A stretch of DNA of 61,276 bases, the filler included, from Globobulimina sp. (taxonomy: Eukaryota), in the NCBI GenBank assembly GCA_003354225.1. It is 19 parts of 19 records of this genome, joined end to end, with 100 filler letters (N's around TTAATTAATTAA, not from the genome) between each part and the next. Parts side by side here need not be neighbours in the genome. Positions count along the whole stretch, not along the records: positions 19,392 to 22,522 come from PIVH01003639.1; 18 more parts are not named here. The stretch is one strand, 5' to 3'. Made by a program: the position numbers and the translations under genes. Positions within the stretch are counted from its first letter, which is position 1. Every line of letters starts with the position of its first letter. The notes below the pieces were generated by a model that did not search any database, was not told the DNA's origin, and worked only from the letters and a program-made list of their open reading frames with translations. Below, piece by piece: positions 3,233-48,361 of this stretch.

Positions 3233-3366
3233 GAGGAAAGAAAGGAGGGGAGGCTAGTTCCGGTGGCGGTCGGCAAAAAGGAAGCATTGTTTTAACATCA
3301 GAGAGAACATTAAAACCATGGGTTAATCTCGGGATTAGCAGGTCTTCCTATTATAGGCGGAAGTAG
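3233..3366 (+). CDS. rep: Plasmid replication initiator (ColE2-type Replicase/PriCT family), C-terminal fragment
   Basis: Translates GKKGGEASSGGGRQKGSIVLTSERTLKPWVNLGISRSSYYRRK*, matching the GKKGG..S.GGGR and KPW..LGISR..YYRR tail of this family. Confidence 0.75.
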
Positions 3367-3955
3367 ATTTATCTATCAGACTGTCTATATGAGATTTTCT
3401 TTTTTGTATTTTTTTGTTTTCAATTGGTATCTCATTCTTTTTCGTTGGGTACTTTAATCTTGCAATCATTTCGCTTGGGTCCAACAGCTCATTAATTTCC
3501 AAGTTAAAGAATCCTACTTTCATGTGACCAAAATAACCACTATATAGATATGTTTGCCAAATTATTTTTTTGTCCTTCACTCTGTTAAATAGTAAAATAG
3601 ATATTACTTGCTCTCTTATTTTCCTTCTTAGTGTTCTCTCGTAGCGACTAGTTATTGTCCTTACTAGTTGTTGTTCTATTGTGCTCCCCCCTTGAGTTAT
3701 TTTTTTTGTAGACCTTACATAAATACATCTCATTATGGCTATTGGGTCTACTCCATAATGCGTTTCGCTCCTATGGTCTTCGGCTAGCAGCAGTACGCGC
3801 AGGTAAATCTCATCTATTTTTGATGATTTATCCCTGTTTTTATTTATGTATTCAATGCATAAATTCAGATCTCTATTTATGCTTTTTTTTCTATGAAAAA
3901 TAAATCCAAGTAAAAAATAAGGTAGTGATAATATAGTTATTAATGCTTTGATTTT
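3335..3955 (-). CDS. Small membrane-anchored transglycosylase-domain (GT51) protein
   Basis: Frame is open upstream of the listed ATG to 3955: TM segment LITILSLPYFLLGFIF, then AEDHRSETHYGVDPIAIMR (motif 1), QGGSTIEQQLVR (motif 2), RKIRE (motif 3), YLYSGYFG. There is no ATG before motif 1, so the start is uncertain. Confidence 0.8.
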   Translation of the reverse strand, partial: KIKALITILSLPYFLLGFIFHRKKSINRDLNLCIEYINKNRDKSSKIDEIYLRVLLLAEDHRSETHYGVDPIAIMRCIYVRSTKKITQGGSTIEQQLVRTITSRYERTLRRKIREQVISILLFNRVKDKKIIWQTYLYSGYFGHMKVGFFNLEINELLDPSEMIARLKYPTKKNEIPIENKKIQKRKSHIDSLIDKSTSAYNRKTC

Positions 3956-16160: not shown

Positions 16161-18747
16161 ATGATCAATTACGAAAAGAAAAATTCTCATTATCCAATTC
16201 CAGCAAAACAAGTCAACATTCAGCAGCATTTTGGATTGATATCATAGATAAAATTAGTAAAGATCCTGCTTATCTAAAATATTTGGTTAAAAATAAAAAA
16301 ATGACTGTAAATGACGTAAATGGGGATGGCAGAACATTGCTAACTCTCTCTGCATTAAAAGGGTCATATGAAATGGTGCAATTTTGTTTAAATGCAGGCT
16401 CTGATATAAATCATAGAGATAATGGCGGTGAGTCAGCTTTAGAGCATGCAAAATCGAACGGATATTATCATGTTGAACAATTATTATTATTCAGTGAGAT
16501 GAATGTAACCATTGGCAATAAAATAAAAAATACATCAAATGTTATGAATAAACAAAAAGGTATAAATCAAAATATATTACAGCAATTAAAACAAATTGGC
16601 GAACAAACAAAACAAATATTTGAAACCACAATAATTGAATTACTTATTAACATAATTAATAAAAAACTTTCATTCGATGATGTATTATTAAACTTATGCT
16701 GGGATATCATATGCAATAATAATTTAGATCCGTTATCTTCTGATTTATGGAAAACATTATCAACAACGAGCAAAAACATAATTAAATCTGGCAGCAAAAG
16801 AGATTGGTATTGGTTTAAAACCTTTGTAGTGCCATCCACAGTTAATTTTGTAATGTTGTTTTTTGTTTTTGCAGTGCACATTGCATCGTGTATATACGTT
16901 TCCGTGTTAACGTTTCTGTTTTTTGTTTTGGTGTATATATAAAGATTTGGTTCAGGAAGATTCAGATCGCAGAAAAAAGTTATACGAAAGAAGAAAAATA
17001 TAACGAAACTGAGACCAAACAAGAGCCACAAGAAAATGACGCATATTATCTATATTTTGAACTGTTAAAATTAGTTGAAACCGAAGCAACATTGCAATTG
17101 AATGAATTGGATAAAAATCTGAATAAATTGGCAAATAAAAACAACAATGATTGGAAAGAGTTGGTTGAATGGGAGATACCAACCGAATATGAGACAGTGC
17201 GTCAAGATGGCATTCCAAATGGTATTGAATCGCAGTATACACGTTCGCAGTTATTAGAAAAATCAGGAGCTACATTTAATGCGCATAAATTTTACGATCA
17301 TAATCAATATTTGTCTGAATTAATATTATTAGCACAAATTGTTAATGATGATTTTCAAACATCTGTGCAAAAAATATTTAATATTAATGATGATCAAAAA
17401 ACTGATGCTGACAATGCTAAAATGGCAATAAAATATAGCAAAGGACCCGTAAAGTTAATAGAAAGAGCACGTGCTAAGGCAGAAAATGATTATTCTGATC
17501 AATTATATCCAACCTCAGCCTGTGTACTGGACATGAATCGATGTTCATTATTTTTCAATGATATAAATGCATTGTTAGCAGCTTTACAATTATTTGTGAA
17601 CAAAATCAAATACTTTCAATCAGGATCAATAATCGGCATTGTTCGGAACAAAAATGGTTTCAAAGATTATGTCAAACAGACACAATACGCAGATATTAAG
17701 TTGAACGTATTAATAAAAGGAAAAAAGAATAATATTATTGGAGAAGTTCAGTTTCTTTTGGAAATAATGAAAGATTACAAAGACAAAGCACATAATTTAT
17801 ATTCGATACAACGACAACGAGAATATATTGAAAATTCAGTGTCAAAAATATTACCGATGTTATTGGATGAAGAGAAACAATTATTTATTCGAGGAGATAT
17901 GAACGATGTGGTTGGATTATATCGTTTGATGACAATTAATAATTTTACGTATCAAGATTTGATAAAAAGAAACAAAGAAAATCAAACAATATTGTTACAT
18001 TCGTGCGAGCTCGGAAATAATAAAATATTTATGTTTCTGCAATCCATATTAAGTAAAGATTTATTTATTAAATATTTATTTTTATCCGCTATTTACGATG
18101 ACAAACCCATTGAAATGGCAATCATGGAAAGTAATGCATTTATTGTTCAAAATGTATTTAAAATGAAACAAGTGCAAGAAAAATATAATAACGATGATAA
18201 TGAATTGTTTCGTTTATTTTTTTGGTTATTTGCATTTAATAAAAGTAGTGATATTATTGATTATGTGTTGTCGATATTAAATATATCAAATGATAAAGTA
18301 TCGTCAATGATGAATTATAAATATCCAAAACCATTAAAACCACCTCCAAATGGAGCAGCCGTATATCATCGATATAACATAATTTGTGAAGTTGTAAAAT
18401 GGAATAAATTAAATGGCTTAAAAAAATTTATATCAATAGTTGGCGAGAAAACATTTATTGAAGGCACATTTATTGATGATGGTTATGGTAGAAATGCATT
18501 GGAATATGCAATTATAAAAAATAAATTGTATATAATGAAATATATGTTAACAATGAAGGATATCAAAGCAAAATGTGGCAATGATAAGGATATGTTATTT
18601 CAAATTATTTCAACTATAAATAAAAATTATAATGAATCAATGGTATTATGTATAATAAATTCGTTACAATTAAATGAAAAAACATTAAAAGAATTGCAAT
18701 CATACAAACAAATTGATATCACCAAAATATTGAATTTATGTAAATAA
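16161..18747 (+). CDS. Ankyrin / RelA-SpoT-like nucleotidyltransferase / ankyrin protein, 5'-truncated
   Basis: ANK repeats (GRTLLTLSALKGSYEMVQFCLNAGSDINHRDNGGESALEHA); intron 16841-16944; core GPVK..RARAK, LDMNR, RNKNGF, YADIKLN, GEVQ, AHNLYSIQR; C-terminal ANK-like repeats (NQTILLHSC, GRNALEYAI). Confidence 0.8.
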
Positions 18748-19391: not shown

Positions 19392-20543
19392 AACCAGAAA
19401 GAATCGATTGAGGATAGAATACGTGATAAGGTGTGTTACGGTGTCAATTTATTACGAAAAAGCCGCGGCGGTCGAATATCGTCGCATGACAAACATTTCC
19501 TAAAATTCTTATTATGCTTTCAAAATGAAAGAAATTACGCTGAAATGCTGTATTCTTCCAAATTAGTTATGAATATATTGCGGAAACCGTTAGGTATGAT
19601 GTTGTACATTTAATTTTATTGTAATATTATTTTATATTTTTAAAATATATATGTATAAGATATTGAATATAAGCGATTGCAATCAATAAATTCAAACATA
19701 TTGACATTGCACGTTGAAGAAAAGGATGAATGTAAAGACATTTCGTCGATGCATTCTTTATTAGAATGGGATTATAACAAATGGTATGGAGCAAGAAAAG
19801 CGATGTTTTGGCCAAATGATTTGAAGCCGTTAGCTGAAGAATGGACAAAATTAGGTTTGAGATTAACTGATCCAGAATTTACTCAAATTCGTAGGAAAGG
19901 AATGTTGGAAACAGATCGATCATTTTGCTCCGCTGAGGATTTGGCCATGGAATATGTTAATTTAATCGCCTATAAATTGGATCCTTCCTTTCAGAAATCG
20001 ATGAAAAATTTATTTCGGCAAAATCGTGAGAAATTAAATCTAAAATTTCCGACAGGAAATGCAGACATTGGTGTCCAGTCAGGTCCCGTTAAGACCAAAG
20101 CGAGGCAAAAAATTAAAATCATATTAAAATATTTCACCAAAAAATCGCCGCAATGTATGAGTGTGTTAGATATTGTACGGTGCGCAATTGTGTGTGATGA
20201 CGATGTCGAATTATGTTCGTTGTTTGAATTGATTATGAATACATTTAGTGGGCAGATATTGAGAGTGAAAAACGCTTTTGATGATGTTAAAAAAGGTGAT
20301 GATTCGCACGGGTATAGAGCTGTTATGATAAATATTGCATTTGGCGATGAAAATGTATTGCCAAAAGGTTTTAGATTTGTATGTGAAGCGCAATTGTTAT
20401 TGAATAAATATTATCAAGTTCGAAAAAATATGCATTTGGGGTATGGAGTATGCAGATCTGAAGATGGCGGAATATCACAGAATAAAAAACCATATTATGT
20501 CTTGGCTCAAGATAGTTGCAAATTTGGTAAATTAGATATATAA
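19392..20543 (+). CDS. RelA/SpoT-like nucleotidyltransferase domain protein, 5'-truncated
   Basis: Intron 19594-19659; core GPVKTKARQKIK, LDIVR, RVKNAF, GYRAVMIN, CEAQ, MHLGYGVCR. Confidence 0.8.
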
Positions 20544-20725
20544 CTTTTTTCTTTTTTTGGTCACATTGAGTTTGTATATTTTATTTGTTTGTGTGCTCTC
20601 AATGTGATTTAATTAATATTTTTTTTATAAACGTTTTCGTTGAACTCGAGCTCGGAAAATAAATTAAAACAATCAAGATACAAATTAAATCCATCAATTT
20701 GTGAGTTAGTAGAAACATATAATAT

Positions 20726-22522
20726 TCATTCCAGTTTATTTTTAATCTTTTTTAAGAATTGAGAAATACGTAAAAACTTGGGACGTTGATTTGATTCATG
20801 TTTCCATAACATTTTCATTAATGTGGCTAAATCGGGTATTTGCTTCACAAATCTATATATATTATCAAATAATCATTATATAAAATATGAAAATACAACT
20901 TATTTTAACTGTAAATGGTTAATTTGTGGTCGTAATTGCTCAGTAACCACTTTAACACCGGCTTGTTTTGGCAATAAATGTGGATAAGGTTCCAATTCAC
21001 TAAATATTTCATATAAAGTAATTCCAAATGAGTAAGCATCTGTTTTCTCCGTATATTCATTGGTGATAATTGATTCCGGTGCCATCCATTTGATAGGTTT
21101 TCGATGATGTCGATGATTATTTTTAGATTGTTTCAATCGACTCATTCCTAAGTCAGACACCACCACTCTCCAATTCTCATCCACCAACAAATTACGCGCT
21201 GAAATATCACCATGAATCACATTCTGTTGATGCAAATGTAAAATACCCAACGATGCATCAATACACATTTCAAGCTTCAACTGCAGCGATAACTGTTTAC
21301 AATGTTTGCGTTTTTTGATAATATCATGCAACGATCCATGCAAATAATACTCTGCATATTTCATGTACAGTACAGTATATATATTGATATTATATTTGGA
21401 ATTATCATACCAGTCACAATACAAATTTCAGGCGCTGTGCAAAATCCGTACATTCGAGCAATATGTTTATGTCCACCCACTTTCTGCATGAGCGAAGCTT
21501 CGCGTTTAAAGTTTTCCAAATCTCTCGCAGACAAACTCAAATATTTAACATTCAACTTTTTAACCGCCACATCAATTCCATTGTATTTTGCTTTGAATAC
21601 CTGTCCAACACAGCCGCTTCCAATAAACTCCTGTTCTGTGAAATCTATATCATAATATTTGATCTCCTGTGGAACAAAACATTTCAGCAAACGAATGGTA
21701 CTGAACCTCTCAAAATCATCTGGCGACACACTCCCTACATTGATATTGTAGCAGTTGTCTGTTGATTTGTATATCATATCATCCTGAGTCGAATCGATAT
21801 CATTGTCATTTTTAGCACGTACAGATTCCAAATGATTCAACTCATATTCTGCCGGATAGGGGCAATCGCGTCGAAATGTTGATTTCTGCGTTGATATTTG
21901 TTGATAATCATTCATGTCATCCTCATCCATTTGGATTATAGTGGATCTATGCTGCATTTCGTGATTTTCATCCATGTGAATATCTGCAGAGATGTTACTG
22001 TTGCTGTTGCGCTCTCGAATGGTTTTGAATGCAGTGTCTATTAAGATTTCAGCTGTTTCTTCTGACGATTTACTGTATACAAATGATAATCGATTCTTTG
22101 TTGCCAGTTTTGTTTCAGGTGGAGTTAAACTTAAACTTTCTTCCCGATCCACATCTTGTTCTTGTTGTACATGTTGTGGTGGTGGTTGTGTTTGTGTCTT
22201 GCCATTAATATTAATGTTGTCAAATCGAAACGTATTATCTGAATCGCCGATTTTGCCGGGAATTGCCATGTATTGATATGTGGATACCTCTGATCGCAAT
22301 GTGCCACATTCAAATTGAGGTTTAGATGGTAGATCGGATGCTTTCTGCTTTGGAACAGCTCTTTTTTTTGATACAAAACGACATGAAATATAAGTGATGC
22401 TAACTGACAATAATAAGAATGATAAAAATGATATTACTACAATTACCCAGATATCTCGGTTTGCAAATGATGATAATGTTTGATTGGAGGAGTATATTAC
22501 AAATGAACCACAACTGTTGTTT
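20726..22522 (-). CDS. Single-pass receptor-like TKL/tyrosine-kinase-like protein kinase, 5'-truncated
   Basis: TM segment (IWVIVVISFLSFLLLSVSITYI), GSGCVGQV, VAVK, HGDISARN, DLG, PIKWMAPE, DAYSFG; introns 21352-21410 and 20853-20909; last exon QRPKF, stop at 20726. Confidence 0.9.
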
Positions 22523-47129: not shown

Positions 47130-47283
47130 TTGAAAAACTATGAATCTTGTGTATGATTATAATTAATTGTTAAATCGCTTCGTCCATTCTACTCCAGCTT
47201 CAATTTCACGCAAAAACGCTTATTTCTTTACATCTCCTTGCGCTTTTTATAATTTTATCTGTTCGGCTTTTTATAAAACCAAA

Positions 47284-48361
47284 ATGTCACATTACAATCA
47301 CACCAAACGACATTACAATGAGAGTCATCCAAGATGGCACAACAACAATTACAACAGTAAGAATTGGACCCCTCGCAAATGGAGAGGATCAAGAGGCAGA
47401 GGGAGAGGATACAGAGCAAGAGGGAGAGGGAGAGGTAGAGGCCGTGGCAGAGGTCGTGGTCGTGGTCGTGGCCGAGGCCGAGGGCGTAATTGGCACAATG
47501 GACGTAACTACAATACCCATGGCAGAAATTATGATTTTCCATTTACAACGGATATCTCACGAATGAAATTAGATAAAAACATGGATAATTTTCTGCCTCA
47601 ATGTGACCGATATGCACCGGGTGGCTCAGAATGTGAGAATTTAGGAACAGCAACACCGGCATCTATTCGTTACATGAAATATCAAACATACTCAGCCACA
47701 GCGAGCCCAGTCTATGGTTTGTCGCAATACGAAGCACCAAACATTGCCACGTACACTGAGATTGAAAGTGAATACAAACAATATTTGCATGAATTAAACA
47801 TTGATGATAAGTATCCACGCTTAAAATATTATATTCGCTCAGAGTCGGATAAGAAAGATGTAATACATTTTGGTCAATTAAAATTATTATTATCAGAGAT
47901 CCGATTTTTAACCGAATACAATGAGTTGGGTGATGTGGTTATTTATGCCGGGGCTGCCCCGGGACATCACATCGAATATTTATCGCAGTTATTCCCTCGA
48001 CTTAAGTTTGAGTTATATGATCCATGTGAATTCAGCAAGAAATTGCATAACAATGAGAACATAGAATATCATCGAGAATATTTCACCAATAAATTAGCAA
48101 AAGAATTGGCCGAAAAATATCAAAAGAATGGCGAGAATATATTATTTATATCGGATATTCGGACTGCGGATCATCGACAAATGGAAGAAATTGAAAATGA
48201 ACAATGCATTGAAAGAGATAATAAATGGCAAAAAGAGTGGGTCCAATCCATGAAACCAAAGAAAGCTATGCTTAAATTTAGAATGCGTTAAGTAATTTAT
48301 TTTATATTTTCGGATTTGTATATACTCAGAAAAATGCGTGTTTTTATATATAGCATATCCG
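47284..48361 (+). CDS. Cap-specific mRNA (nucleoside-2'-O-)-methyltransferase, poxvirus VP39-like, with RG tract; 3'-truncated
   Basis: HFGQLKLLLSEIRFL, VIYAGAAPGHHI, FELYDP, LFISDIRT, MKPKKAMLKFR; intron 48287-48353 restores KFRMPYP. Confidence 0.85.

Follow-up and report, generated by a model that had tools for sequence, protein, structure and literature searches.

A spliced gene of Globobulimina sp. was found to end in a predicted synthetase core of the RelA/SpoT-homologue (RSH) type, and dozens of divergent paralogues were found in the same assembly (48,370 contigs, 70 Mb). The best explanation, to which we give a probability of about 0.55, is that the gene product would be a repeat-gated cytosolic pyrophosphokinase making a 3'-pyrophosphorylated purine nucleotide. 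If active, the copies would represent an unexpected system of nucleotide signalling or defence in a non-photosynthetic eukaryote, and dozens of intact, spliced synthetases missed by Pfam would make eukaryotic alarmone signalling testable with single recombinant domains. No report of this foraminiferal family, or of foraminifera together with ppGpp, was found in a literature search that had most subscription papers and supplements outside its range.

Structure of the gene and architecture of its orthologues

The window, the whole stretch of 61,276 nucleotides analysed, was made up of 19 contigs, each about 3.13 kb long and unlinked to the others, with N linkers between them. The gene was located at the start of contig PIVH01003639.1 (G000:C3639; window 19392-22522), where a frame open from the first base passed through one intron to a stop codon at 20541-20543, 26 residues past the core, giving 361 codons with zero internal stops (Table 1). 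Its 5' end was lost at the contig edge, and the start of the gene lies before 19392; the gene as seen here is incomplete, being cut at its 5' side, and contains an intron of 66 nt. This intron was precisely skipped in three of the four runs compared (X1, X3, and X6, from three studies), and contigs of run X5 entered it from both sides. Because the runs carried no RNA record (RNA being a guess for X1 and X3), no expression level is claimed from depth. Among the differences listed between run X1 and the gene, at least 25 sites differed in 24 codons, of which 16 were silent and 8 residue-changing, with none at catalytic positions. The penultimate exon matched residues 1143-1211 of the relative P0185 at 83%, and a contig of run X3 extended 139 nt beyond the start of the gene's contig. 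The last exon matched its two best short relatives at 65-72%, and the ending of its C-terminal tail was common to P0002, P0091, and P0190. The convergent kinase gene downstream had an intron of its own (21352-21410), skipped in X1 and X3; nothing ties this kinase gene to the synthetase system.

Table 1. Features of the gene, its neighbour, and the second copy (window positions)
Feature	Position	Strand	Basis
Penultimate coding exon, helical linker before the synthetase	19392..19593	+	Frame open at contig start
GT-AG intron, 66 nt, phase 1, in-frame stop inside	19594..19659	+	Skipped in run contigs
Last exon: linker of about 90 residues, synthetase core, conserved C-terminal tail, stop	19660..20543	+	ORF and relatives
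Predicted RelA/SpoT-homologue synthetase (Pol-beta nucleotidyltransferase) domain, Apk1/EAS type, 176 aa	19938..20465	+	AlphaFold2, fold search, residue table
Tyr/Ser/Thr-type protein kinase gene, convergent neighbour	20900..22522	-	PK_Tyr_Ser-Thr, E 4.6e-36 and 2.1e-10
Second window copy: ankyrin repeats, helical region, core (17296-17823), weak C-terminal ankyrins	16163..18747	+	Ank_4, E 5.5e-11

Fourteen longer relatives matched the gene at 53-73%, all with the synthetase last; the orthologues came from three named foraminiferal genera and were about 1,500 residues long. A repeat profile found three to six copies of a 130-residue unit in these 14 proteins. Of 13 orthologues, 3 exceeded the cut-off for F5/8 type C families (PF00754 or PF22633), as did P0195, and three more matched below it, while the presumed 5' contig of this gene, C3163, reached 26.9 bits against a cut-off of 27.8. 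The nearest ESM Atlas clusters of the repeat unit were eukaryotic and NR2C2AP/F5_F8- and IFT25-like (0.94-0.95), so that a module for interactions inside the cell seems likelier than a lectin of the cell surface. One relative added EF-hands and one a weak UBA. Neither a hydrophobic signal nor a membrane segment was seen in any of the 14 orthologues (maximum 19-residue hydropathy 1.58), several of which lack a true start, and no export signal or secretion domain was found in them; PAAR, MuF, and LXG had no Pfam match in 13 orthologues, and NACHT/NB-ARC was absent from the 13 full-length orthologues at E<=0.02, the synthetase being C-terminal. What is new is that the flank of this gene would be made of discoidin-like repeats, with the synthetase last and no membrane segment.

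C3163, which carries the repeats, matched residues 309-1110 of P0185 at 44-46%, and the contig of the gene matched residues 1143-1504 at 68%. Joining the two contigs by DNA overlap failed as none was shared, so the link between them is one that we infer. The closest paralogue gave a direct answer: its contig C2062, with five repeats, overlapped C29868, which carries a core 60% identical to that of this gene, by 59 nt, and this proves the repeat-plus-synthetase architecture in this genome.

Fold and active site of the synthetase core

The motifs GPVKTKARQKIK (P at 20085), LDIVRC (D at 20169), RVKNAF, GYRAVMIN, EAQ (E at 20385), and HLGYGVCR were read in order in the plus-strand frame 19659-20543. 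The core kept residues K52, R56, K60, D78, R81, K111, Y126, N132, E150, Q152, and H166, and six of these aligned with canonical RSH rows, as the catalytic Asp (D78), the Glu-x-Gln pair (E150 and Q152), the G-loop Tyr (Y126), and the two phosphate-binding Lys (K52 and K60). An AlphaFold2 model on a 55-row alignment had a pLDDT of 93 and a pTM of 0.87. Foldseek matched it to RelQ (5ded) at E 3.6e-6, and RelQ was also the best match in VIA-align (Z 15.7, rmsd 2.7 Å, 155 aligned). All of the top 26 VIA-align entries were RSH synthetases, among them RelP (Z 14.8), SaEAS (8vx3, Z 12.6), CapRel (Z 12.4), and Tas1 (6ox6, Z 11.8) by fold score, and DNA polymerase X enzymes came next at Z 8.9 and below; FaRel2 scored Z 8.0. 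In aligned identity, Tas1 led the top structural rows (20%). The model almost certainly has the alarmone-synthetase (RSH) fold, and the intact residues predict that the enzyme domain is likely to be active.

Sequence databases did not name this gene. No Pfam family, ankyrin included, was found in the ORF at E<=1; RelA_SpoT (PF04607) matched neither window copy and nothing in the assembly, the best paralogue scoring 23.4 bits where the cut-off is 27; and NCBIfam, PHROGs, and a single-sequence PDB search gave no name. Since the Pfam model was blind to both copies, the label RelA/SpoT-like needed evidence from profiles and structure, which supported it, and with all top structural matches being RSH the label was right at the level of fold. 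Overall, the observation was confirmed: the motifs, the C-terminal position of the domain, the lack of ankyrins, and the different flanks all held for 19392..20543.

The second window copy, on the adjoining unlinked contig, was a distant paralogue of another subclade and fell in a separate 11-member clade in the tree. The two cores aligned with 48 identities in 179 positions (27%, E 5e-9). The same motif series had been claimed for both copies; it was true of this gene, but the other copy read GPVKLIERARAK, LDMNRC, RNKNGF, QYADIKLN, and EVQ. It also had a putative intron near 16841-16945, read from sequence alone.

Probable relationship to the Apk1/EAS clade

The nearest bacterial kin of the family are very probably the exported or toxic synthetases of the Apk1-EAS-RelV clade and not RelA, RelP, or RelQ, a relationship that is new here. 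Columns 50/56/81/83/128/130 of the alignment read R/S/(G,A)/R/S/H in nine of nine canonical synthetases, P/R/R/A/A/M in this gene, and mostly (P,G)/R/R/T/D/(K,N,M) in the EAS-like rows. The motifs had the form P-x-K-x3-R-x3-K, D-x-x-R-x-A, and Y-x-A-x-M (mostly Y-x-D-x-K in the family), and the canonical forms R-x-K-x3-S-x3-K, D-x-x-(G/A)-x-R, and Y-x-S-x-H, present in all nine canonical rows, were absent from this gene. The aligned piece of Tas1 carried P-x-K-x3-R-x3-K and D-x-x-R, as here. The active-site residues named for SaEAS are D121, R124, K154, N169, E182, and Q184 (PMC12691689), and a mapping that relied on partial alignments to PDB entries and on a bridging protein placed five of the six, with D121, R124, K154, E182, and Q184 corresponding to D78, R81, K111, E150, and Q152. 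The column of N169, four residues after the G-loop Tyr, held Met in this gene; Lys predominates there across the family, and the bacterial EAS-like rows carry K, N, M, or Q. An equivalence of the family's N132 to N370 of Apk1 was dropped because N169 of SaEAS falls four, not six, residues past the Tyr.

All 52 near-complete cores scored higher on an EAS-like profile than on a canonical one (medians 52 versus 8 bits; this gene, 40.2 versus 10.6), a comparison that is partly circular because the EAS-like set was picked by similarity to the family. The foraminiferal rows and 11 of the 12 EAS-like rows fell on one branch of a tree (SH-aLRT 96), and the 55 foraminiferal rows grouped inside that branch with a support of 88; this tree was built by a quick method without bootstrap or AU test, has long branches, and omits FaRel, FaRel2, CapRel, PhRel, and the fungal and Dictyostelium synthetases. 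When 301 genomes from a single bacterial phylum were searched with the family profile, 6 gave matches at E<=0.001, always in ORFs of 257-410 aa. In two genomes where RelA and SpoT had been located, the profile matched EAS-like genes only (E<=0.1). One such EAS-like protein, from Photobacterium, had Tas1 as its best PDB match (E 2e-5), aligned end to end with the family (probability 98.8), and by eye had a signal-peptide-like N-terminus, a feature known from RelV/VpEAS. Another relative, from a phage, was found in a prophage cluster with the order portal, synthetase, small ORF, and hydrolase, which is the arrangement reported for apk2 (PMC10083569). Against this ancestry, the overall fold ranked RelQ and RelP (Z 15.7 and 14.8) above SaEAS and Tas1 (12.6 and 11.8), and direct profile matches to Tas1 were weak: a 28-core profile favoured YwaC/RelP (E 0.007) over Tas1 (E 0.03), and a 55-core profile found only Tas1 (E 0.13) and SaEAS in the PDB, both weakly. 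Weak matches to the NCBIfam model XopAD were seen in 3 of 55 members, and a Mycoplasmopsis tblastn match was rejected as not homologous. Two uncharacterised bacterial synthetase-like ORFs of 350-410 aa (L106, G001:C100; L118, G247:C1) carried a (G/A)PLKT-R motif similar to the start of the foraminiferal core.

Apk1/Tas1, Apk2, SaEAS, VpEAS/RelV, and AaEAS resemble the gene in fold, donor-site pattern, five of six named residues, and tree position, whereas the foraminiferal family is eukaryotic, spliced, and present as dozens of paralogues, has neither export domain nor signal peptide, shows no adjacent immunity gene downstream, and is fused to discoidin-like, ankyrin, or WD40 repeats. RelQ/RelP and RelA/SpoT/Rel (PF04607; 5ded, 6fgj) give the best overall fold matches and share the catalytic D, E-x-Q, G-loop Y, and two lysines, but the core here is below Pfam detection and has no HD, TGS, or ACT domain. 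FaRel2 and CapRel share the fold, the catalytic D/E/Q/Y, and an N-terminal helical extension next to the core, and R64, S70, G93, and R95 of FaRel2 are P50, R56, R81, and A83 here. Synthetase-only RSH domains of eukaryotes have been described in fungi (Aspergillus, Gibberella), Dictyostelium, and diatoms (PMC3153485). Like these divRel SAS and the fungal RelA_SpoT-NACHT NLRs, the family consists of non-plastid, synthetase-only RSH proteins, some without hydrolase and some with repeats; compared by description rather than by sequence, those are Pfam-detectable and sporadic or form N-terminal effectors of NLRs, whereas the foraminiferal domain lies internally or at the C-terminus and has undergone massive expansion. 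The survey of the Apk1/EAS clade covered bacteria, and its main text holds no word starting with "eukaryot" (PMC12691689).

Expansion of the family

At least 73 distinct contigs of the assembly matched the family, with six protein searches giving cumulatively 41, 49, 62, 70, 71, and 73; this is a lower bound on contigs and not a gene count, since some contigs contain fragments, one pair or more seems to represent a single gene, and four are known from the search listing alone. The two hits among 19 contigs had been read as a sign of high copy number. The high copy number itself stood, but the rate was not representative: about 0.5% of contigs at this size rank matched the family, for which two of 19 has P of about 0.004 on the lower-bound count, so the two adjacent hits in the window were fortunate. 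The 52 near-complete cores were all distinct, with a median identity of 26% and a highest of 88%. Ten active-site residues (the kept residues listed above without H166) were retained in 48 of the 52 and in 140 of 153 cores from outside the assembly, and C82, R109, and N132 were near-invariant and peculiar to the family. Representatives of clusters at 50% matched the family in 7,245 cases at E<=0.001 and 2,408 at 1e-10, a set whose tail will include bacterial proteins; named relatives came from Nonionella, Bolivina, and Ammonia.

The partner domains varied widely. Ankyrin, WD40, Rdx, SAM, and FKBP were found in the same ORF in the assembly (flanks of 111 ORFs), and partners overall also included EF-hand and discoidin-like repeats. 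Among 42 long outside relatives, judged by the best five Pfam families per protein, ankyrin was present in 28 and nothing was detected in 12; RCC1, coronin-like WD40, WW, and CH occurred in a few. Expansion with domain shuffling, as originally proposed, was supported by the 73 contigs, the divergent cores, and these partners. Diversifying selection, raised in the same proposal, was not seen: whole-ORF pairwise dN/dS was 0.08-0.39 in 10 of 14 paralogue pairs, the other four being saturated, and the paralogues of these 10 pairs are under purifying selection.

Several members stood out. L034, L046, L064, and L066 (C4188, C11078, C25691, and C1845) and L129 (C2437) had lost catalytic residues with the frame kept and are possible pseudoenzymes. 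A 13-member clade (L037-L052) had the first motif K-x-K-x3-RAFYK, C-terminal SAM, FKBP, or WW neighbours, and the youngest duplications (77-89%). Three paralogues of a third subfamily (L141, G000:C18898, 65-1075, minus strand; L142, C809; L143, C2315), which were not in the tree, had a first motif closest to Tas1 and a phage Apk2-like protein and would be the best bridge sequences. The synthetase profile matched two stretches of P0007, and a coronin-like WD40 region was joined to the synthetase in P0016.

Proposed mechanism and alternatives

The gene would encode a cytosolic protein of about 1,500-1,650 residues in which several discoidin-like (F5/8 type C) beta-sandwich repeats come first, an extended helical stretch follows, and a pyrophosphokinase with an intact catalytic site forms the C-terminus. 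This pyrophosphokinase domain very probably traces back to the bacterial Apk1/EAS/RelV clade, and it has expanded into dozens of paralogues that differ in their sensor or scaffold domains. The N-terminal repeats would keep the enzyme off until binding of a partner or ligand frees it, a gating suggested by the reported toxicity of free EAS domains (PMC12691689) and by the variety of partner domains. The freed enzyme would use ATP to pyrophosphorylate a purine nucleotide at its 3'-OH, giving (p)ppGpp or (p)ppApp, which could serve as an intracellular signal or growth brake, comparable to nucleotide cyclases with their varied sensors. Products differ within the clade, being (p)ppApp for Apk1 and Apk2, (p)ppGpp for VpEAS and AaEAS, and both for SaEAS; sequence therefore does not reveal which product is made, and assignment to the Apk1/EAS clade means that assays must seek (p)ppApp as well as (p)ppGpp.

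A free purine nucleotide is the rather probable acceptor. Pyrophosphorylation of an RNA 3' end (tRNA-CCA, as by FaRel2/CapRel) or of another macromolecule, which would make the system one of translational control and not of a free messenger, appears improbable. The fold is common to CapRel (Z 12.4) and FaRel2 (Z 8.0), the residues after the G-loop Tyr depart from the canonical S-x-H, and C82, R109, and N132 are near-invariant positions peculiar to the family, all of which would suit such an acceptor; but two arginines reported for FaRel2, R64 and R95 (PMC11782079), are missing from the donor site, whose pattern fits Apk1/EAS although it does not by itself reveal the substrate, and the EAS-clade enzymes described in PMC12691689 use nucleotides. 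The chemistry of the gated pyrophosphokinase would be the same, and its role different, if these proteins were, as originally suggested, innate-immune or conflict effectors whose repeats sense an invader and whose synthetase depletes ATP/GTP and so brings death or arrest to the cell or to part of it, as Apk1 and the fungal RelA_SpoT-NLRs are thought to act. We regard this, the main alternative, as unlikely, even though the bacterial kin are described as toxins (PMC12691689, PMC3482391), RelA_SpoT is described as an NLR effector in fungi (PMC4986451), ankyrin was present in 28 of the 42 long relatives scanned and WD40 or RCC1 in 3, and a signal-resetting hydrolase was not found in the HD_4 search of the assembly. 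The low dN/dS of 0.08-0.39 (10 of 14 pairs), the conservation of orthologues across three genera (53-73%), and the age of the paralogues (median identity 26%) argue against it, as does the finding of no NLR-type NTPase (NACHT/NB-ARC) in the 111 flank ORFs or the 42 long relatives (best five families per protein).

Delivery of the enzymes into prey or symbiotic bacteria, where they would manipulate the stringent response, is very improbable: all 14 orthologues were without a hydrophobic signal or membrane segment (several also without a true start), and the proteins are large and multidomain with eukaryotic cytosolic partners, although they are kin of exported synthetases and the idea has been raised for fungal RelA_SpoT domains (PMC4986451). 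Hardly any weight falls on an inactive scaffold or a bacterial contaminant. Four of the 52 cores lacked catalytic residues and the assembly contains prokaryote-like contigs, but this copy retains all ten residues, and contamination at this locus was refuted by the spliced intron, the eukaryotic kinase neighbour, and the orthologues in named foraminiferal transcriptomes. Beyond the gated pyrophosphokinase itself, we tentatively suggest, at somewhat less than even odds, that a bacterial alarmone toxin was domesticated in foraminifera, and perhaps also in other protists, and became a large family of sensor-gated enzymes, with (p)ppApp or (p)ppGpp as messenger or brake and without a canonical hydrolase. 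Such a family might be used, for example, in dormancy, anoxia, or defence, and the discoidin-repeat protein would be one conserved, ancient receptor-enzyme.

Hydrolase candidates and probable non-host DNA

A Mesh1/SAH-like hydrolase, which the original prediction had thought worth seeking, was not found in host-like form: the HD_4 search of the fragmented assembly gave two candidates, prokaryote- or phage-like by eye, and the missing Mesh1 is weak evidence because of this fragmentation. A synthetase without a hydrolase has also been noted in other eukaryotes (PMC3153485). A Mesh1-like HD protein (L035, G000:C42220, 230-604, plus strand) was encoded on a 606-nt contig of 27% GC with a small, tightly packed upstream ORF; it has a phage-derived look, which makes it probable that the assembly includes DNA from outside the host. 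Elsewhere in the window, an ORF at 3335-3955 (minus strand), in a contig among eukaryotic ones, reads as what we take to be a bacterial transglycosylase of the penicillin-binding protein type. The region 47167-48291 (plus strand) carries RG repeats followed by what is presumably a sequence like the poxvirus-type cap methyltransferase/poly(A) polymerase small subunit.
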